NCBI GenBank assembly: GCA_949285535.1
Contig: CASDZP010000002.1
Location: forward strand, 100,054-164,053
Length of the DNA: 64,000 nt
Reading direction: 5' to 3'
Origin: an uncultured Alistipes sp.
GTDB taxonomy: Bacteria > Bacteroidota > Bacteroidia > Bacteroidales > Rikenellaceae
Part shown: positions 9,598 through 44,320 of the stretch, in pieces
How the letters are laid out: each line of letters begins with the position of its first letter
Numbering within the stretch: position 1 is the stretch's first letter
The notes under the pieces: model-generated
Told to the model about the DNA's origin: nothing
The model's database searches: none
What the model saw: only the letters and a program-made list of their open reading frames with translations
Position numbers and translations under genes: made by a program

Positions 9598-9670
9598 GAT
9601 TCAGTAGCTCAGCTGGTAGAGCACGACACTCTTAATGTTGGGGTCCTGGGTTCGAGCCCCAGCTGAATCA
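9598..9670 (+). tRNA. tRNA-Lys (anticodon CUU)
   Basis: Acceptor gattcag/ctgaatc, D stem gctc/gagc, anticodon stem cgaca/tgttg with loop ctCTTaa, T arm ctggg-ttcgagc-cccag. Confidence 0.92.
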
Positions 9671-9712
9671 CTTCTCCGCGATGTACGGGCGGAAGAATAA
9701 ATTCCGTACAAC

Positions 9713-9785
9713 GATTCAGTAGCTCAGCAGGTAGAGCACAACACTTTTAATGTTGGGGTCCTGGGTTCGAGCCCCAGCTGGATCA
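9713..9785 (+). tRNA. tRNA-Lys (anticodon UUU)
   Basis: Same fold as the first copy. Anticodon stem caaca/tgttg with loop ctTTTaa. Confidence 0.92.
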
Positions 9786-9827
9786 CTACTCCGCAATGTA
9801 CGGGCGGAAGAACAAATTCCGTACAAC

Positions 9828-9900
9828 GATTCAGTAGCTCAGCAGGTAGAGCACAACACTTTTAATGTTGGGGTCCTGGGTTCGAGCCCCAGCTGGATCA
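9828..9900 (+). tRNA. tRNA-Lys (anticodon UUU), second copy
   Basis: Identical to 9713-9785. Confidence 0.92.
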
Positions 9901-9908
9901 CAAAAAGG

Positions 9909-32040: not shown

Positions 32041-32053
32041 CTTTTTTCTTTTT

Positions 32054-32112
32054 AAAGATATAATTATAGGGGATGATTTTATCGGAAAATCATCCCCTAT
32101 AATCATATCTTT
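32054..32112. repeat. 59-bp hairpin/palindrome (27-bp stem, 1 mismatch, 5-nt loop)
   Basis: aaagatataattataggggatgatttt / atcgg / aaaatcatcccctataatcatatcttt, checked base by base. The single mismatch is 32062 against 32104. Confidence 0.9.
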
Positions 32113-32160
32113 TAACGAAAAATATTTTCACACAACATAATAAAATACATGAAAATAATG

Positions 32161-32402
32161 TCTCCCGACAGGCTCTCCGAGGGGGTTCCGACGGGGCTCC
32201 GACGGCGCCTTCCGCGGGAGTTACTTTGTCCCTCGACAAAGTAACCAAAACGAGGGGGCACAGCCCCTTTTGTCCATGTCATATTCATTTGGCTCATTAT
32301 CTTCCACGAAGTCAGCATCATAAATTCGTATCGCCTCCGAAAAATAAAAATGGAGAAAAGAATGTAACGGGGTACGCTAATCAACTTGTCGGAAATGATA
32401 AA
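32161..32402. repeat. repeat element E, copy 1 (core 32220-32319; GC-rich 3x ccgacgg tail 32161-32219)
   Basis: The 48-nt block 32220-32267 is identical to the reverse complement of 32651-32698 and to 42027-42074. The 29-nt block 32291-32319 is identical to the reverse complement of 32599-32627. Confidence 0.9.
32245..32402 (-). ncRNA. candidate sRNA 1 (about 158 nt), encoded by repeat copy 1
   Basis: A TAATTTTG -7 box at 32416-32409 on the minus strand points into the repeat. The transcript would end at the hairpin ggggcugugccccc followed by cguuuu (32267-32247). It is a paralogue of the 32514-32672 candidate. Confidence 0.35.
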
Positions 32403-32408
32403 AAAGTA

Positions 32409-32416
32409 CAAAATTA
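32409..32416 (-). promoter_or_regulatory. candidate -7 box TAATTTTG (minus strand)
   Basis: The plus strand reads caaaatta. No CDS lies downstream, only repeat copy 1. Confidence 0.4.
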
Positions 32417-32499
32417 GGGTCAGTTTTTGAACGAATTTGATGAATAAATTAAGACAATTTTGTAAAAAGTCGGGGGTATTTATTTTTTATTCTTTTTCA

Positions 32500-32507
32500 T
32501 ATTTTTG
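32500..32507 (+). promoter_or_regulatory. candidate -7 box TATTTTTG (plus strand)
   Basis: Matches TAnnTTTG. No CDS lies downstream, only repeat copy 2. Confidence 0.4.
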
Positions 32508-32513
32508 CCAATG

Positions 32514-32672
32514 TCTCTTAATAAGAGAATAAGGATTGACAGGTTGGCAAGCGTACCCCGTCGTTTCCTTTTTTACTATGCGAGGCGAGTGCTGTGAAGA
32601 TGCTGACTTCGTGGAAGATAATGAGCCAACTGGGTGTGACATGGTGGGAAGGGGCTGTGCCCCCTCGTTTTG
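32514..32672 (+). ncRNA. candidate sRNA 2 (about 159 nt), encoded by repeat copy 2
   Basis: The promoter box is at 32500-32507. The terminator hairpin ggggctgtgccccc (32651-32664) is followed by tcgtttt. It shares conserved blocks with candidate sRNA 1. Confidence 0.35.
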
Positions 32673-32710
32673 GTTACTTTGTCGAGGGACAAAGTAACGC
32701 CGTCGGCAGA
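32514..32710. repeat. repeat element E, copy 2 (inverted relative to copy 1; core 32599-32698)
   Basis: See copy 1. The outer end tctgccgacggcg (reverse complement of 32698-32710) is shared with copy 3. Confidence 0.9.
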
Positions 32711-32722
32711 CATATATTGATA

Positions 32723-32884
32723 ACAGACTCCCCAAAGGAACGGTAATGATAGAATTTGAATAACCAACATTACACACAAATACGAAGAGAGGTGGAAAAT
32801 AGTCTGATTTTCCACCTCTCTTCGTATTTGTGTGTAATGTTGGTTATTCAAATTCTATCATTACCGTTCCTTTGGGGAGTCTGT
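32723..32884. repeat. 162-bp perfect palindrome (78-bp arms, 6-nt spacer) containing the 3' end of the biotin-carrier gene
   Basis: Arms 32723-32800 and 32807-32884 are exact reverse complements (78/78), checked by hand. Confidence 0.95.
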
Positions 32885-33185
32885 CGCCTGTGTTGATGTT
32901 TACAGCTTTGACTACGCCGTCAACGTCCGACTTAATCATGCTGTCCATCTTCATGGCTTTGAACAACACCAAATCGTCGCCTTCTGACACGGTGTCGCCG
33001 ACCTTAACCTTTACGTCAACGATTGTGCCGGGAATGAAGTTCACGACCTGTTTGGGGTTTGCGGGCTCCCACGGTTTACGTCTGCGGTACGTTTCGGTGA
33101 ATCTCATCGTCTTGAAATCACCGTGCATCGTACCAATAACCTCATATGCGGGGGTCGCAGTCTCTTCCGTTTTGGTTTTAGCCAT
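32844..33185 (-). CDS. biotin carboxyl carrier (biotinyl/lipoyl domain) protein
   Basis: 113 aa with the biotinylation motif EAMKM-like (FKAMKMDS). It lies downstream of the carboxyltransferase gene. Confidence 0.85.
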   Translation of the reverse strand: MAKTKTEETATPAYEVIGTMHGDFKTMRFTETYRRRKPWEPANPKQVVNFIPGTIVDVKVKVGDTVSEGDDLVLFKAMKMDSMIKSDVDGVVKAVNINTGDRLPKGTVMIEFE

Positions 33186-37136: not shown

Positions 37137-39095
37137 ATGAAGATACTGCTTGTCACCCCGCCGTTCATTCAGCTCAACACACCATACCCCGCAACCACTG
37201 AGCTGAAAGCATACCTCGTGAGCAAAGGACACGAGGTCAGACAGTGCGACCTGTCGATAGAGCTGGCGGAGAGAATTTTTTGTCGGGATTTTCTGAAAGA
37301 TATATTCGCTGAGGCTTTCGAGCGTGACACGCTGTCGCTTGAGGCGCAGAGCGTGGCGGCACAGAAAGGACGTTACCTCTCTACCGTGGAGGCTGTGTGG
37401 GGTTTTCTGCGTGGCGATGATGATACTCTCGCTCCGCTTATCGCGTCGAGCGACTATCTGCCATGCTCCGAGAGAGCAAAGAGAGACGAAGAGGCGCTTG
37501 AATGGGCTTTCGGAAGTTGCGGTGTCATCGACAGAGCCAGATACATGGCGACTCTATATATAAAAGAGCTCACCGACTTCGTGGCGGAGATTGTCTCTGC
37601 GGATTTCTCGCTGATAAGGTACGGCGAACAACTTGCCGTAGCCGCCGCAACATTCGACAAACTGCGAGAGAGGGTCGAGGGTGAGCGCAACGCGATAGAC
37701 CGCCTCATGACGGAGCTGTTTGACAGTAAGCTGAAAGAGACACAGCCCGAAATGGTGGGATTCTGCGTTCCTTTCCCCGGAACATTGCCCGCCGCGCTCA
37801 TATTGTCGAAACATACGGCGGAGAAGATGCCCGAAACGGTAAGGGTAATGGGCGGGGGATACGTAAACACAGAATTGCGGTCGATGTCGGACGGCGCGAT
37901 ATTCGACTATGTAGATTATCTTGTTTTTGACGACGGACAGCTGCCTCTTGAGACATTATGCCGTTTTCTTGGCGGAGAAGCCTCCGCAGACGAGCTTGTA
38001 AGAACGGTTTACAGACGTGAGAACGGGGAGCTGGCGCCAATGCTCAACACTTACCGTAACATACGTTTCGACGAATTGCCCGTTCCCGACTTCAGCGACT
38101 TCGACAGGTCGAAATATGTCTCTTTAGTCGATTTCACCAACCCCATGCACAAGCTGTGGAGCGACGGCAGGTGGAACAAAATGACCGTGACGCACGGCTG
38201 TTATCACAAAAGGTGCGCTTTCTGCGACACATCGCTCGACTATATAGGACGATATGACGCCCCTTCGCCCGAAACTGTGGTGCGAAAAATCGAGGGTATC
38301 ATAAAACAGACGGGCATAAGGGGTTTTCACTTCACGGACGAGGCTCTGCCGCCCGCGCTGTTGGTAAAGGTATGCAGACTGCTTGTCGAACGGGGCATAA
38401 CAATCAGTTTCTGGGGTAACATACGCTTTGAGAAGGCATATACGCCCGAAGTGTGCGCACTCATGCGTCAGGCGGGGTGTATAGCCGTGTCGGGAGGCAT
38501 GGAGGTGGCGCACGAGAGGGTGCTCGCGCTCATGGGTAAGGGCATAACGGTTGAGGACGCACGACGATGCGCCGCAAACTTCGCCGACGCTGGAATCATG
38601 GTGCATACCTACCTCATGTACGGTTTTCCGACGCAGACACTCGAAGAGTGCGCACAATCGCTCGAAACGGTACGTGACATGTTCGCGCAGGGTATAGTGC
38701 AATCGGCGTTCTGGCATCGCTTCGCACTGACCGTACACAGCCCCGTGGGCATAAACCCCGAAAAATACGGGTGTCGTCTCGCATGCGACAAGCCTAACCC
38801 GTTTGCGAACAACGGCATAGACTACACGTGTGACAACAGCGACCTCGACTGGAACGAGGCGGGCGACGGATTGGCGAAAGCCACATATAATTACATGCTC
38901 GGACTCGGATATGACCTGCCGGTCGAGAAATGGTTGCCGATATTGAGACGTAGCAGGCACGACACAAGAGATGACAAAAGAAACGACAAAAGAGATAACA
39001 AAAAAGATAACAAAAGACACGATGACAGAAATATGGCGAAAAACCGTAAAAAAGAGCACAGAAACGACAACCGCCGTAAAAGCGGCAAGAGATAG
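37137..39095 (+). CDS. B12-binding-domain radical SAM protein with highly charged C-terminal tail
   Basis: 652 aa. The N-terminus is B12-binding-like (MKILLVTPPF…). The Cys cluster is HGCYHKRCAFCD. The last 50 aa are almost entirely K/R/D/N/H. Confidence 0.8.
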   Translation: MKILLVTPPFIQLNTPYPATTELKAYLVSKGHEVRQCDLSIELAERIFCRDFLKDIFAEAFERDTLSLEAQSVAAQKGRYLSTVEAVWGFLRGDDDTLAPLIASSDYLPCSERAKRDEEALEWAFGSCGVIDRARYMATLYIKELTDFVAEIVSADFSLIRYGEQLAVAAATFDKLRERVEGERNAIDRLMTELFDSKLKETQPEMVGFCVPFPGTLPAALILSKHTAEKMPETVRVMGGGYVNTELRSMSDGAIFDYVDYLVFDDGQLPLETLCRFLGGEASADELVRTVYRRENGELAPMLNTYRNIRFDELPVPDFSDFDRSKYVSLVDFTNPMHKLWSDGRWNKMTVTHGCYHKRCAFCDTSLDYIGRYDAPSPETVVRKIEGIIKQTGIRGFHFTDEALPPALLVKVCRLLVERGITISFWGNIRFEKAYTPEVCALMRQAGCIAVSGGMEVAHERVLALMGKGITVEDARRCAANFADAGIMVHTYLMYGFPTQTLEECAQSLETVRDMFAQGIVQSAFWHRFALTVHSPVGINPEKYGCRLACDKPNPFANNGIDYTCDNSDLDWNEAGDGLAKATYNYMLGLGYDLPVEKWLPILRRSRHDTRDDKRNDKRDNKKDNKRHDDRNMAKNRKKEHRNDNRRKSGKR

Positions 39096-39223: not shown

Positions 39224-41854
39224 ATGGCCACTGAAAAGAAATATGTAGAGACCCCGCTGATGAAGCAGTACTACCAGATGAAGTCGAAACACCCCGACGC
39301 CATCCTGCTTTTCCGCGTGGGAGACTTTTATGAGACTTTCGGCGACGATGCGATAAAGACAAGCTCCATACTTGGGATAACGCTAACAAAACGCGCCAAC
39401 GGAGCCGCCTCATACGTCGAGCTGGCGGGATTCCCCTACCATGCGCTCGACACCTACATGCCCAAACTCGTAATGGCGGGCGAACGAGTGGCTATATGTG
39501 AACAGCTCGAAGACCCGAAAAAGACGAAGACAATCGTAAAAAGGGGTATAATCGAGCTTGTGACACCGGGTGTGTCGTTCAACGACAATGTGATAAACAA
39601 AAAGGAGAACAACTATCTGGCTTGCGTCTTTTTCGGACAGAAGAAAGTAGGAGTGTCGTTCCTCGACATAACAACGGGTGAGTTCTACGCCGCCGAAGGG
39701 TCGAAAGAGTATGTCGAAAAACTGCTCGCCAACTTCGCGCCCAAAGAGGTGCTGTTTCAGCGCGGATGCAAAGAGCAGTTCGTTGAGGCGTTCGGCTCGA
39801 AATATCACCTGTACCACCTCGAACAGTGGATTTTCTCGCTCAAAAGCGCGACCGACAAACTGACATCGCAGTTAGGTGTGATGTCGCTCAAAGGCTTCGG
39901 TATCGAGAAGCAGGAGTCGGCGATAATAGCCGCTGGCGCAATACTCTACTACCTCGAATTTACCGAGCATCACGACACGAAACATATCTCGGCGATAACA
40001 CGAATCGACGAGGACAAATATATGTGGCTCGACAAATATACGCTCCGCAATCTGGAGATATTCAACTCGACTACCACAGACGGATACTCGCTGATAGACA
40101 TAATAGACAGGACGGTCACCCCTATGGGCGGACGATTGCTCCGACGCCAGCTCTCACTGCCGCTCAACAACAGACGACAGATAGAACAGCGTCTCGATGT
40201 GACAGAGGCTTTCGTAAAAGAGGCTGGCATCTGTGACTCCGTATCCTCGATACTCAAAGGCGTGGGCGACATCGAACGCCTCATATCGAAAGTGGCGGTC
40301 GGACGTGTATCGCCGCGCGAGTTAGTGGCTCTGAAAAACAGCTTTACAGCCATATCGGAGATAAAAGAGATACTTCTGACGTCGGACAACAAGGCTGTCA
40401 ACTCGTGGAGCGGCAAGCTCGACGGGCTGCCCACCATGCGTGAGAAGATAGAGAAAACGATACTCGAAGAGCCCGCCGCCAATATCGCCAAAGGCGGAGT
40501 GATAGCGCACGGCGTATCGGTAGAGCTTGACTCGCTCAGGCAGATGTCGCACGGAGGCAAGACCTATCTGGCGCAGATGCAGGAGCGACTCTCCGAGCAG
40601 ACGGGAATACCGTCGCTCAAAATCAGCTTTAACAATGTGTTCGGCTATTTTATCGAGGTGCGCAACACGCATAAGGATAAGGTACCCGAAGAGTGGATAC
40701 GCAAACAGACGCTGTCGGGAGCGGAGAGATATATCACCGCAGAGCTGAAAGAGTATGAGGAAAAAATTCTCGGAGCGGAAGAACGCATATTGGCGTTGGA
40801 GGCGGAGATATTCGGAGCGTTAGTCATTGAGCTTGCCGCCGAGACATCGAAAGTGCAGGCGGACGCGGTACAGCTGGCACGTCTCGACCTTTTCTGCTCA
40901 TTCTCGATAATGGCACGTGCGGCAAACTATTGCCGTCCCGCTCTCTGTGACGAACCGATTATCGACATAAAGGAGGGACGACATCCCGTAATCGAACGAC
41001 TGATGCCTATCGGCGAGACATACATACCAAATGACATAAAACTCGACGACAAGAGCAACCAGATAATAATAATCACGGGTCCCAACATGGCTGGTAAGTC
41101 GGCGTTGTTGCGACAGTGCGGTCTGATAACGCTTTTGGCGCAGATAGGCTCGTTCGTACCCGCAAAAGAGGCGACAATAGGTGTCGTGGACAAGATTTTC
41201 ACCCGTGTGGGAGCGTCAGACAACATATCGCAGGGCGAATCGACATTCATGGTCGAGATGCTCGAATCGGCGAACATCCTCAACAACGCCACATCGAAAT
41301 CGCTGGTACTGCTCGACGAGATAGGTCGAGGAACAAGTACATACGACGGTATTTCGATAGCGTGGGCGATGGTGGAATACCTGCACTCGCTTGAGGGTAA
41401 GGGCGTGAGGACGCTGTTTGCCACACACTATCACGAGCTTAACGAGCTTGAGGAGATTTATCCGAGGATTAAGAACTATAATGTCGCCGTAAAGGAGATT
41501 AACGGCAGAATCATATTTTTGAGGAAGCTGGTCGAAGGCGGCACGGAACACTCGTTCGGTATTCATGTGGCACGATTGGCGGGTATGCCCAAAAGTGTCA
41601 TCAGCAGAGCCAACGAGGTGCTTCACGCTCTCGAAAAGCGTCGTGACGGAGCCGAAGGCTCTACGGACTTCAATATTCCCGGATTCAAGGAGGTATCGGG
41701 TCAGGAAAACATGCAAATGGCGTTATTCCAGCTCGACGACCCATTGGTATCACAGATAAAAGAGGAAATCTCATCACTCGACCTAAACAACATAACCCCT
41801 ATCGAAGCCCTCAACAAGTTGAGCGACATCAAGCGACTGCTTGGAGTGAAATAA
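39224..41854 (+). CDS. mutS: DNA mismatch repair protein MutS
   Basis: 876 aa (…TPLMKQYYQMKSKHPDAILLFRVGDFYE…, Walker A GPNMAGKS). Confidence 0.97.
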   Translation: MATEKKYVETPLMKQYYQMKSKHPDAILLFRVGDFYETFGDDAIKTSSILGITLTKRANGAASYVELAGFPYHALDTYMPKLVMAGERVAICEQLEDPKKTKTIVKRGIIELVTPGVSFNDNVINKKENNYLACVFFGQKKVGVSFLDITTGEFYAAEGSKEYVEKLLANFAPKEVLFQRGCKEQFVEAFGSKYHLYHLEQWIFSLKSATDKLTSQLGVMSLKGFGIEKQESAIIAAGAILYYLEFTEHHDTKHISAITRIDEDKYMWLDKYTLRNLEIFNSTTTDGYSLIDIIDRTVTPMGGRLLRRQLSLPLNNRRQIEQRLDVTEAFVKEAGICDSVSSILKGVGDIERLISKVAVGRVSPRELVALKNSFTAISEIKEILLTSDNKAVNSWSGKLDGLPTMREKIEKTILEEPAANIAKGGVIAHGVSVELDSLRQMSHGGKTYLAQMQERLSEQTGIPSLKISFNNVFGYFIEVRNTHKDKVPEEWIRKQTLSGAERYITAELKEYEEKILGAEERILALEAEIFGALVIELAAETSKVQADAVQLARLDLFCSFSIMARAANYCRPALCDEPIIDIKEGRHPVIERLMPIGETYIPNDIKLDDKSNQIIIITGPNMAGKSALLRQCGLITLLAQIGSFVPAKEATIGVVDKIFTRVGASDNISQGESTFMVEMLESANILNNATSKSLVLLDEIGRGTSTYDGISIAWAMVEYLHSLEGKGVRTLFATHYHELNELEEIYPRIKNYNVAVKEINGRIIFLRKLVEGGTEHSFGIHVARLAGMPKSVISRANEVLHALEKRRDGAEGSTDFNIPGFKEVSGQENMQMALFQLDDPLVSQIKEEISSLDLNNITPIEALNKLSDIKRLLGVK

Positions 41855-42007
41855 TCACCTTCTGATAAGCATAATTCTGATAAGAGATAAAATAAACATG
41901 GCTATCATTGTTTGTCAAATGATAGCCATATTTATTTTTATCTCTTATCAGAATTATGCTTGTCAGAAGGTGATTATTTCACTCCAAGCAGTCGCTTGAT
42001 GTCGCTC
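41821..42007. repeat. 187-bp near-perfect palindrome (89/90-nt arms, 8-nt spacer) containing the 3' end of mutS
   Basis: Arms 41821-41909 and 41918-42007 are reverse complements, apart from 2 mismatches and a 1-nt indel, all outside the coding part. Confidence 0.95.
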
Positions 42008-42014
42008 CGCGGGG

Positions 42015-42126
42015 TCTGCCGACGGCGTTACTTTGTCCCTCGACAAAGTAACCAAAACGAGGGGGCACAGCCCCTTTTGTCCATGTCATATTCTGTTGGC
42101 TCATTGTCTTTTACGAAGTCAGCATC
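42015..42126. repeat. repeat element E, copy 3 (core only; truncated at the chrA stop)
   Basis: 42027-42074 is identical to 32220-32267. 42075-42126 matches 32268-32319 with a handful of mismatches, about 5. The leading tctgccgacggcg matches copy 2. Confidence 0.9.
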
Positions 42127-42140
42127 TGACCGTGCATAGC

Positions 42141-42665
42141 CTAAAAGAGGAAGTAGCCGACGACACCGCTCAAAGCAACGACCAAAAGAGGATTGACCTT
42201 AAACCATACGGCGGCAAGTGAAACGACAAAGACAATGACGCTTCGGTAGTCGATAAAGTTCTCTCCGTTCATCATGATGAGAGCAGCAGAGGCTATAAGT
42301 CCGATTATGACGGGACGCATCGACCTCATCACCTGTTTCAAATAGGGATTGCCGTTAAGACGCGCATAGAAGAAAGAGCCTATCAACATCAGCACAAGCG
42401 ACGGAGTGCAGACACCCAAAGTGGCGAGCACCGAGCCGAGAACACTTCCGCCCGTAGCGGTATAGCCAATATATGTTGCGCAGTTTATCGAGATGGGTCC
42501 GGGGGTCATCTGCGATATGGCGACAATATCGGCGAACTCCGAGCTGCTTATCCACTCGTGAGCGACAACAACCTCACTCTGTATGAGAGACAACATGGCA
42601 TAACCGCCGCCGAACCCGAAAAATCCGATTTTCAGAAAAGAAAGGAAAAGTTCAAAGTATATCAT
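42141..42665 (-). CDS. chromate transporter family protein (short-chain CHR, second half)
   Basis: 174-aa membrane protein (…GFGGGYAMLSLIQ…). It overlaps the partner gene by 4 nt. Confidence 0.85.
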   Translation of the reverse strand: MIYFELFLSFLKIGFFGFGGGYAMLSLIQSEVVVAHEWISSSEFADIVAISQMTPGPISINCATYIGYTATGGSVLGSVLATLGVCTPSLVLMLIGSFFYARLNGNPYLKQVMRSMRPVIIGLIASAALIMMNGENFIDYRSVIVFVVSLAAVWFKVNPLLVVALSGVVGYFLF

Positions 42666-44090: not shown

Positions 44091-44112
44091 AAAACCGTAT
44101 TAGATACGGTTT
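44091..44112 (-). terminator. weak intrinsic terminator (minus strand) ending the lpxH-like transcript
   Basis: accguau / cua / auacggu followed by uuuug on the minus strand. Confidence 0.35.
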
Positions 44113-44116
44113 ATAT

Positions 44117-44320
44117 ACATTTAACACTCTGACAACAGACTAAATAAAATACGCAGGTGTACTTTTAACATTCTGACTGCAAGCTAATAAAATATGACAG
44201 ACGTACTTTTAAAAGTCTGACGACAAACTAAATAAAATACGGCAGATGCACTTTTAACATTCTGACTACAAACTAATAAAAATACGGCAGACGTAATTTT
44301 AACATTATGAAGATTAGCGC
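44117..44320. repeat. tandem repeat, 44-45-bp unit x about 4.5
   Basis: The units start at 44117, 44161, 44205, 44250 and 44295 (partial). Consensus: acttttaacattctgacNacaaactaa(a)taaaatacggcagacgt. Confidence 0.9.

Follow-up and report, generated by a model that had tools for sequence, protein, structure and literature searches.

Among the described systems, quasi-palindrome template switching (Ripley model), studied in E. coli by the Lovett laboratory (PMC7202029, PMC6357072) and in yeast (PMC8604942, PMC13100816), resembles the locus reported here in that an intramolecular strand switch, taking place at a short inverted repeat, leads to one arm being used as the template for the other. Such switching is described there as lengthening and perfecting or homogenising the arms of the palindrome, as able to invert the spacer (PMC8604942, PMC13100816), and as being stimulated by protein–DNA blocks; in E. 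coli, covalent protein–DNA complexes stimulate it strongly (PMC6357072). The same snap-back priming and a small asymmetric centre are known from fold-back inversions that arise at a break near a short inverted repeat, as described in yeast (PMC7467729) and human (PMC3907307). In origin-dependent inverted-repeat amplification and inverted triplications (PMC4689423), junctions lie at short palindromes such as terminators and are ascribed to strand switching at the fork, and the invertron plasmids kalilo and pAL2-1 of fungal mitochondrial DNA (PMC1864894) represent a selfish insertion with inverted target repeats generated de novo. P nucleotides and hAT excision footprints are palindromic extensions of the flank beside a transposon end, which result when a hairpin formed on the flanking DNA is cut open away from its centre. 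A further case of fold-back palindrome formation next to a short inverted repeat is the Tetrahymena rDNA, and tandem inversion duplications of Salmonella have their junctions at short palindromes via strand switching at forks. Generally, fold-back or template-switch duplication has been investigated by means of reporters, or its occurrence has been deduced from scattered mutations and from rearrangements in cancer or yeast.

In the window analysed in this study, i.e., the whole stretch of 64 kb from an uncultured Alistipes sp., an inverted-repeat search and reading of the sequence revealed two arms at 32723-32800 and 32807-32884 that are complementary at 78 of 78 positions and separated by a spacer of 6 nt, bearing out the perfect 162-bp palindrome described in an earlier, sequence-only reading of this DNA. 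It is located at the end of an ORF for a biotinyl-carrier protein of 113 aa (32844-33185, minus strand; Pfam Biotin_lipoyl match at residues 53-111), which is the terminal gene of a carboxyltransferase operon, with a Carboxyl_trans gene (Pfam) upstream, and the 3' end of which gave rise to the copy. The genuine arm (32807-32884, minus strand) starts within the coding sequence, of which it covers the final 38 nt (32847-32884), and continues through the stop codon (32844-32846) into 37 nt of 3' UTR with the ascending terminator stem. It is followed by a non-palindromic loop of 6 nt (32801-32806; AGTCTG on the plus strand) and by the mirror arm (32723-32800, plus strand), a derived inverted copy that reads ...LPKGTVMIEFE-stop-UTR on the plus strand. 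An AT-rich filler of 11 nt (32712-32722), probably a remnant of native intergenic DNA, then separates the mirror arm from copy 2 of a repeat designated E, so that the gap previously given as 12 nt is in fact 11 nt. Outside the terminator stem of about 21 bp, about 57 nt were duplicated in reverse, namely the final 38 nt of the coding sequence and the stop codon together with 16 nt of 3' UTR. The repeat search of the window revealed neither a third, direct-orientation copy nor a second inversion junction; the mirror arm is followed by the filler and then by E.

The palindrome is far beyond chance. Its predicted RNA fold is a single unbroken stem of 78 bp with -144.4 kcal/mol, compared to -40.5 +/- 4.1 kcal/mol for shuffled sequences (z = -25), while the predicted single-stranded DNA fold of the region reached -95.5 kcal/mol (z = -25.6 versus shuffles), and 0 of 200 shuffles matched the fold stability of the region. 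According to these predictions, a transcript that reads through the terminator could fold into a duplex of 78 bp extending 38 nt into the carrier ORF. The earlier suggestions that such a duplex would be a potential substrate of RNase III, and that palindromes of this size would be prone to SbcCD-type cleavage, are reasonable. A terminator scan identified the inner stem of 20-21 bp, with a loop of 6-8 nt and the tail TTGTGTGT, as terminator-like on both strands, i.e., a GC-containing stem-loop lies just 3' of the stop codon and is followed by a T-rich tract; the tail is itself mirror-derived and only moderately rich in T. The hexamer AGTCTG, proposed earlier as microhomology left by the copying event, was confirmed at the loop (32801-32806) and at both arm edges (32878-32883 and, as its complement, 32724-32729). 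It occurs 27 times in the window, and the match at the arm edges has a chance probability of about 0.2%, as judged post hoc. Since no counterpart was detected at the other eight palindromes described below, AGTCTG is not a general signature, and it was rejected as a general junction motif.

Every contig used in this study originates from a short-read metagenome assembly. An ENA MEGAHIT contig assembled at k=87 (L001, k87_18336510) contained the identical palindrome joined to filler and E; this contig is 100% identical to the window and may be derived from the same reads. As the arms (78 nt) are shorter than k, the reads must hold 87-mers linking filler, arm, and loop. Moreover, the palindrome is internal to the 64-kb window and not located at a contig end, and sister structures are present in assemblies of other samples. 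These sister palindromes are imperfect and one mismatch was inherited by two strains, so that they are not fold-backs of the assembly graph or of amplification. Perfect arms tied to the k-mer size, a position at contig ends, and a lack of reproducibility across samples, as typical for artefacts, were all not observed. Thus, the 162-bp palindrome is real, and the former concern about a chimera is answered by the k=87 assembly spanning it and by the imperfect sister palindromes shared across samples. In Logan contigs of other runs, the sequence either ended precisely at the border of arm and loop (L002, L006) or crossed the loop in flipped orientation and proceeded 23-27 nt into the second arm, beyond the natural stem (L005, L110; strains with UTR indels of their own). 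The flipped loop was rejected as proof of a true flip-flop, as a k=31 graph permits both paths across a perfect palindrome and the observation is therefore uninformative. Two contigs obtained with a longer k-mer or a different assembler (L109, L112) also end exactly at the loop border, which is only a hint of real loop heterogeneity.

The closest relative found was a Rikenellaceae MAG species with a carrier protein of 80% amino acid identity and conserved synteny upstream. Its carrier gene ends with the same C-terminal peptide (...DRLPKGTVMIEFE-stop, also given as ...GDRLPKGTVMIEFE-stop), followed by a plain terminator of 8-9 bp (GCCGCCTCTT-GAAAAA-GGGGCGGC-TTTTTT), and neither a mirror copy nor repeat E is present at this locus. 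Hence, the right arm represents the ancestral state and the left arm is a later addition, in line with the previous view of the left arm as a mirror copy of the genuine gene end. Searching GTDB representative genomes with the carrier protein as seed resulted only in relatives of at most 58% identity, which were useless as an empty site. Another contig (L111, run DRR279221) is 99.4% identical across the carrier gene and continues with unrelated sequence from the third base of the stop codon; its stop codon is TAG, as in the outgroup, followed by AACAAAAAGAGTGTGG... and a different 3' UTR. This contig may represent the pre-event allele of the carrier locus. If L111 is ancestral, the central hairpin would not be the native terminator of the carrier gene, and the palindrome at this locus could then not be explained by a single snap-back step at that terminator. 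A complete pre-event allele was not recovered.

Repeat E itself is polar, non-coding, multi-copy, hairpin-rich, and about 115-140 nt long. Its outer end consists of 1-5 tandem GC-rich modules of about 12 nt (e.g., GTCTGCCGACGG, CTCTCCGAGGG, and GCTCCCGCGGG). In all copies, an invariant 10-bp hairpin (GTTACTTTGT-CCCTCG-ACAAAGTAAC) is located 13 nt inside the innermost terminal module, i.e., E has a conserved subterminal hairpin at a fixed short distance of the kind looked for in IS200/IS605-derived PATE or REP/RAYT-type elements. Further inward, a GC hairpin, terminator-like in both directions, and about 60 conserved nt follow. A long form (E_long) contains an extra 150-300 nt with a 27-nt motif, and short and long forms have the same outer end. 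The window harbours three copies. Copy 1 (32158-32336, minus strand) has its outer end on the left with five of the 12-nt terminal modules, and copy 2 (32583-32711, plus strand; nhmmer E-value 1.8e-41) runs from inner to outer end with the outer end towards the palindrome. Together they form an inverted pair (111 nt, 89% alike, 279 nt apart), and the inner part of this composite (32337-32582, E_long) is weakly palindromic with 35-nt arms of 74% complementarity and has the 27-nt motif GACAAGTTGATTAGCGTACCCCGTTAC once in each half. Copies 1 and 2 thus show the terminal inverted repeats expected of a MITE, yet E occurs singly at a minimum of five other loci. On the two sides of the composite (…GAAAATAAT and ATATATTGATA…, respectively), no clear direct repeat was detected that would point to a target-site duplication. 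Copy 3 (42008-42143, minus strand) is a solo copy, the outer end of which abuts the mirror arm of a palindrome at the mutS gene, while its inner end begins at the stop codon of a chrA-like gene. In general, solo copies have one end only and occupy convergent intergenic regions with the inner end at or in the stop of the other gene (chrA-like; bPH_5 in contig L098). Five E termini read ...GAC|AT, which is no more than suggestive of insertion 3' of a fixed tetra- or pentanucleotide as in IS200/IS605-derived elements, and at three others (...CCGCGGAGC) the mirror arm abuts directly. In two cases, a possible overlap of 3-4 nt (GCT/GCTC) between the mirror end and the terminal module of E was detected, AGTCTG/GTCTG was found at the carrier locus only, and no microhomology at the return junction was seen in the remaining cases.

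Further copies of E were sought via the translation of its one open frame (...GAVPPRFGYFVEGQSNAVGR...), which resulted in 15 clusters of spurious ORFs, each with a different flank. NCBI contigs of 168, 77, 48, and 40 kb contain such E-derived ORFs. From these many copies at unrelated loci, and solely from them, E appears to be mobile. All nhmmer matches were confined to loci of this lineage. An exact scan of GTDB representative genomes for the hairpin of E gave 0 matches, no match to E was found in viral contigs, plasmids, and phages, and one metagenome scan resulted in one partial E at a contig end. Rfam revealed nothing for E, and for the long hairpin only spurious matches to plant miRNA precursors. 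Gene-order differences between near-identical strains (L098 versus L099) coincide with E, and assembly chimeras through E are possible at such sites.

All nine E outer ends examined, three in the window and six on other contigs, adjoin a long palindrome at a distance of 0-37 nt. While the proximity of E had been taken as incidental, it turned out to be key, with at least nine mirror copies at the same end of E. The half-lengths of these palindromes range from 38 to 128 nt, and the order is constant, namely E (inner to outer end), mirror arm, centre, genuine arm, and gene. Coding sequence is mirrored in at least five cases, comprising at least four gene 3' ends, including that of mutS, and one 5' end. 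The mutS palindrome (41821-42007) extends from the final 31 nt of the coding sequence across the stop codon (41852-41854) to 3' UTR and terminator, all of which are followed by their inverted copy (mirror tract 41936-42007; outer 72-nt arms 99% alike), and it was also identified in strain L007 with more mismatches. Upstream of kdsB, a palindrome at 32044-32122 with 37-nt arms (86% alike) faces the outer end of copy 1 at a distance of 36 nt and is an older or shorter member of the same class. On other contigs, we identified 82-nt arms (95%) at the 3' end of a gene for a glycogen synthase/phosphorylase-like protein of 1421 aa (L098), perfect 35-nt arms inside the 3' UTR of rpsT (L099), 31-nt arms (90%) without coding sequence (L100a), and 82-nt arms (99%) that comprise the 5' UTR, the start codon, and the first 19 codons of an M16 peptidase gene (L100b). 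Two further palindromes have half-lengths of at least 108 nt (L107) and of 128 nt (L108), including at least 70 nt and 76 nt, respectively, of the 3' coding sequence of a gene.

A scan for palindromes with arms of at least 25 nt covered 122 kb, namely the window, three further contigs of the E lineage, and two loci of the related species. It revealed six palindromes, all of them beside an E outer end, and no long palindrome elsewhere in these 122 kb, including about 17 kb from the two loci of the related species. As a control, 611 kb of unrelated loci contained only two such palindromes, one of them an artefact with perfect arms and zero spacer at a contig end (L040). Regarding their organisation, the palindromes are centred on terminator-like hairpins, with a tiny loop in L100b, and at the carrier locus as well as at six further loci the inverted copy directly adjoins its source, with the nearest short inverted repeat, usually a terminator, as the centre. 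The nine centres are unrelated in sequence, and the assumption that hairpin cores are carried along with E was rejected for this reason. A similarity of gene sequence beyond the carrier arm to the terminal modules of E was also considered and found unconvincing. In four cases, 11-37 nt of filler separate mirror copy and E, which indicates that the junction is formed near the E terminus and not at it.

With respect to age, the arms are 100% identical at the carrier locus, followed by 99, 99, 98, 95, 91, 90, and 86% elsewhere. At mutS, one arm mismatch is common to the window and strain L007, which is 99.4% identical and was obtained from a different sample; thus, the structure is older than the split of these strains. 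In addition, both have private changes, located in either arm, so that the arms are not being homogenised. Arm differences in the sister palindromes are chiefly transitions without adenine bias. The arms hence decay through ordinary point mutation, which implies that 100% identity at the carrier locus reflects a recent event and that the carrier palindrome is the youngest of the series. Of the two explanations offered earlier for its zero divergence, very recent origin is supported by the imperfect sister palindromes and by the differing flank in L111, while continual homogenisation is contradicted by the independent divergence of the mutS arms.

Based on these findings, we favour, with moderate confidence, the interpretation that the 162-bp palindrome is a real and recent inverted duplication, one of a class formed by snap-back synthesis that is triggered at the outer end of E. 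That the copy arose by fold-back or template switching had already been suggested, and the anatomy at the terminator hairpin fits this view. In this process, the outer end of E would be nicked or broken, or would be occupied by a protein in a tight or covalent manner, so that DNA synthesis in the flank would stop, and the freed 3' end would fold back on the nearest hairpin and be extended by 40-130 nt with its own strand as template. Rejoining or a switch back close to E would then overwrite the original spacer, including the original tail of the terminator, and the arms would afterwards decay by point mutation. The geometry requires two junctions: the strand would turn back at a short inverted repeat and would then be joined near the E outer end, either without homology or via microhomology. 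As every case is found at the outer end of E, the trigger is probably located there; candidates would be a nick or break introduced by a nuclease or transposase specific for E, or a protein attached tightly or covalently to the terminal modules. E copies of both orientations, 0.5-10 kb apart and with no switch in GC skew between them, all have mirrors, which makes a barrier to forks of one direction only unlikely and fits better with an end-specific lesion. On the other hand, no nuclease, transposase, or RAYT partner was identified for E, and in the four cases with filler the junction is not directly at the E terminus; both points count against an E-triggered explanation. One-ended strand transfer by a transposase and hairpin opening with P-nucleotide formation were considered as well and rejected, since both would, on paper, place the centre at the E junction or yield hairpin-capped chromosomes.

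More tentatively, E could be the end of an undescribed bacterial selfish element, or a site of site-specific nicking or of a covalent DNA-protein complex, the activity of which would systematically generate mirror copies of the neighbouring 40-130 nt of host DNA, with a hairpin as primer of synthesis; we regard this as possible but doubtful. If true, it would build long hairpins into coding regions, duplicate promoters and start codons towards the element, and mark rearrangement breakpoints, and would thus represent a natural, sequence-addressed generator of fold-back duplications.

The reverse order of events, in which palindromes arise without E and E inserts at their edge via a structure-specific transposase recognising hairpins or cruciforms, appears unlikely. 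Some insertion-sequence families and class C group II introns are known to target hairpins or REP sequences, and the filler in four cases shows that mirror and E are not always fused, as would be expected from such targeting. However, it requires a separate source of palindromes, which was not seen, with every palindrome occupied, and no long palindrome was detected away from an E outer end in the scanned DNA of the lineage or in about 17 kb of the related species.

We consider it improbable that the hairpins are explained by a selected function, i.e., that they are retained as bidirectional terminators or insulators, stabilisers of mRNA 3' ends, or RNase III sites to the benefit of the host or of E. 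The predicted RNA hairpin is indeed very stable (-144 kcal/mol), E carries terminator-like hairpins in both directions, and the structures last long enough to accumulate up to 9% arm divergence. This decay, however, appears neutral, without compensatory pattern or homogenisation, and the mirrored content is arbitrary, comprising 3' ends, a 5' end with start codon, or UTR only. Moreover, the original tail of the carrier terminator appears to have been overwritten by the copy and exchanged for the weaker T-tract TTGTGTGT, and a function would in any case not explain the origin of the structures.

Even less probable, in our view, is a retro-element origin with E as a non-autonomous element. In this case, the end of an mRNA from an adjacent gene would be reverse transcribed, with priming by its own terminator hairpin or by a fold-back at the 5' end, and the enzyme would then jump to the 3' end of the E RNA, followed by integration of the chimeric cDNA. 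The polarity of E, the common outer end of its short and long forms, and the location of the mirrors at gene ends, mostly at terminators, would agree with this, as would the end-to-end template jumping typical of reverse transcriptases. The Bacteroidetes -7 promoter box has the consensus TAnnTTTG, and the mirror in L100b contains a match to it (TAATTTTG) directly at the centre; thus, the copied tract would extend upstream of the expected transcription start, which disfavours a cDNA origin. In L100b, the start codon and the 5' UTR, along with the probable promoter box, would now be directed towards E as well. In addition, the arm differences are ordinary transitions without adenine bias, and no reverse transcriptase was found among the ten nearby ORFs of the window that were scanned. 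A DGR-like TR/VR pair was also rejected, as there are 0 differences at the carrier locus and no adenine bias in the sister palindromes, and the repeats are inverted and include stop codon and UTR. Finally, it is extremely unlikely that the palindrome is a fold-back artefact of assembly, MDA, or library preparation that formed at the edge of a repeat: the data are all short-read metagenome assemblies in which contigs often break at the loop, L001 may share its reads with the window, and the control locus L040 illustrates the typical artefact, but the palindrome lies internally with arms shorter than k=87, and graph fold-backs would be perfect, whereas the sister palindromes have mismatches and indels, one mismatch being common to the window and L007.

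Altogether, these loci show fold-back or template-switch duplication in a natural bacterial lineage, where it recurs at a fixed place, the ends of one repeat family (9 of 9), and where its products differ in age, with arm identities from 100% down to 91%. Should E indeed be the cause, they would provide a tractable system for studying the trigger of snap-back in vivo (nick, covalent protein complex, or structure) and its tract length, as well as a way to ask how bacteria tolerate perfect palindromes of 160-250 bp, and a new mechanism linked to transposition or repair would be possible. Genome annotation would also be affected via false ORFs, false miRNA-like Rfam matches, contig breaks, and possible chimeric joins at E.

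In comparison with the known systems, a single palindrome of this type is a known kind of event, while we know of no earlier description of a systematic coupling of mirror copies to the same end of a repeat confined to one lineage. E resembles REP/BIME/REPIN sequences and MITEs (e.g., Correia elements) in its small size, its non-coding nature, its presence in multiple copies, and its many hairpins, as well as in its position between convergent genes and its capacity for inverted pairing, as seen for copies 1 and 2. In contrast to these families, E revealed neither a target-site duplication nor a RAYT or transposase partner, and we know of no report of such families carrying mirror copies of flanking host DNA. 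Invertrons have inverted target copies of up to kilobases on both sides and are protein-primed linear plasmids, whereas here both arms are located on one side of a 140-nt repeat. With P nucleotides and hAT footprints, the centre lies at the junction of flank and element and the tracts comprise a few nt; here, it lies 38-128 nt away at a separate hairpin, and E is retained. Tandem inversion duplications and triplications share the junctions at short palindromes but have two junctions and a third, direct copy, which is absent here, and fold-back inversions are chromosome-scale with hairpin-capped or dicentric intermediates, whereas the structures of our study are short, interstitial, and rejoined to the adjacent DNA. 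The described events of quasi-palindrome template switching involve a few nt inside an existing imperfect repeat, whereas the tracts copied at the loci of this study comprise 40-130 nt of unrelated flank including coding sequence and are found repeatedly at the same end of one particular dispersed repeat.

In addition to the perfect palindrome at the end of the biotinyl-carrier gene, a second, near-perfect palindrome was identified in the window at 41821-42007, which mirrors the 3' end of mutS, including 31 coding nt, the stop codon, the UTR and the terminator. A solo copy of the dispersed repeat E (42008-42143) abuts this mirror palindrome, and a convergent chromate-transporter-like (chrA-like) gene follows, with its stop codon forming the start of the inner end of this copy. 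Mirroring was also detected at a gene 5' end, namely in L100, a further contig that carries repeat E. Here, the palindrome (L100 5961-6152) takes in the start of an M16 peptidase gene (the ATG plus 19 codons) together with its 5' UTR and a TAATTTTG box. The copying results in a second start, which faces outward and reads into repeat E.

The carrier gene revealed a different allele in strain L111 (Logan DRR279221), which shares 99.4% identity with the window across the gene. Its stop codon is TAG, the same as in the Rikenellaceae outgroup, and the sequence downstream of the stop is unrelated (AACAAAAAGAGTGTGGTATTCGCTACACT) and replaces the UTR and hairpin of the window (L111 1031-1061 compared to window 32845). 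This allele may represent the pre-event state of the carrier locus, and it also puts in question whether the central hairpin is native there. A search against Rfam at 32712-32895 resulted in matches to MIR821, MIR5649 and other plant miRNA-precursor families, with E-values as low as 5e-17 but scores under the gathering scores of these families; such an identity is false, the matches being caused by the long perfect hairpin alone.

Comparison of two further contigs with repeat E, L098 and L099, revealed 99.3% identity over 6.7 kb, followed by divergence within the outer modules of the repeat (L098 10093; L099 6733). Past repeat E, L098 leads to a glycogen synthase-like gene and L099 to rpsT, each with a separate mirror palindrome, and contig L008 behaved in the same way at the chrA copy. 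Repeat E is either a rearrangement breakpoint or the point at which the assemblies turn chimeric.

Other repeats were also found in the window. A 45-nt tandem array of about 4.4-5 units (44098-44320) lies upstream of a pseudouridine synthase gene; it apparently has about two fewer units in strains L011-L014 and L016, and its copy number therefore varies. In its 3' part, the radical-SAM ORF 37137-39095 contains about 4.8 tandem units of a GACAAAGAGAT-like 12-nt repeat (38961-39017), and a 115-nt 'tandem repeat' (9598-9901) consists of three tRNA-Lys genes (anticodons CTT, TTT and TTT) with their spacers.

At its inner end, repeat E overlaps the ends of adjacent genes: sequence common to the E copies contains the last c. 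5 codons and the stop of a bPH_5 gene (L098 9950-9972) and, in the case of the chrA-like gene, the stop codon (window 42128-42143). The outer end is a variable array of one to five GC-rich modules of about 12 nt (consensus approximately CTCCGACGGG), e.g., at window 32158-32219, L099 6710-6745 and L100 6153-6184. These modules could be protein-binding iterons or scars from repeated end processing.
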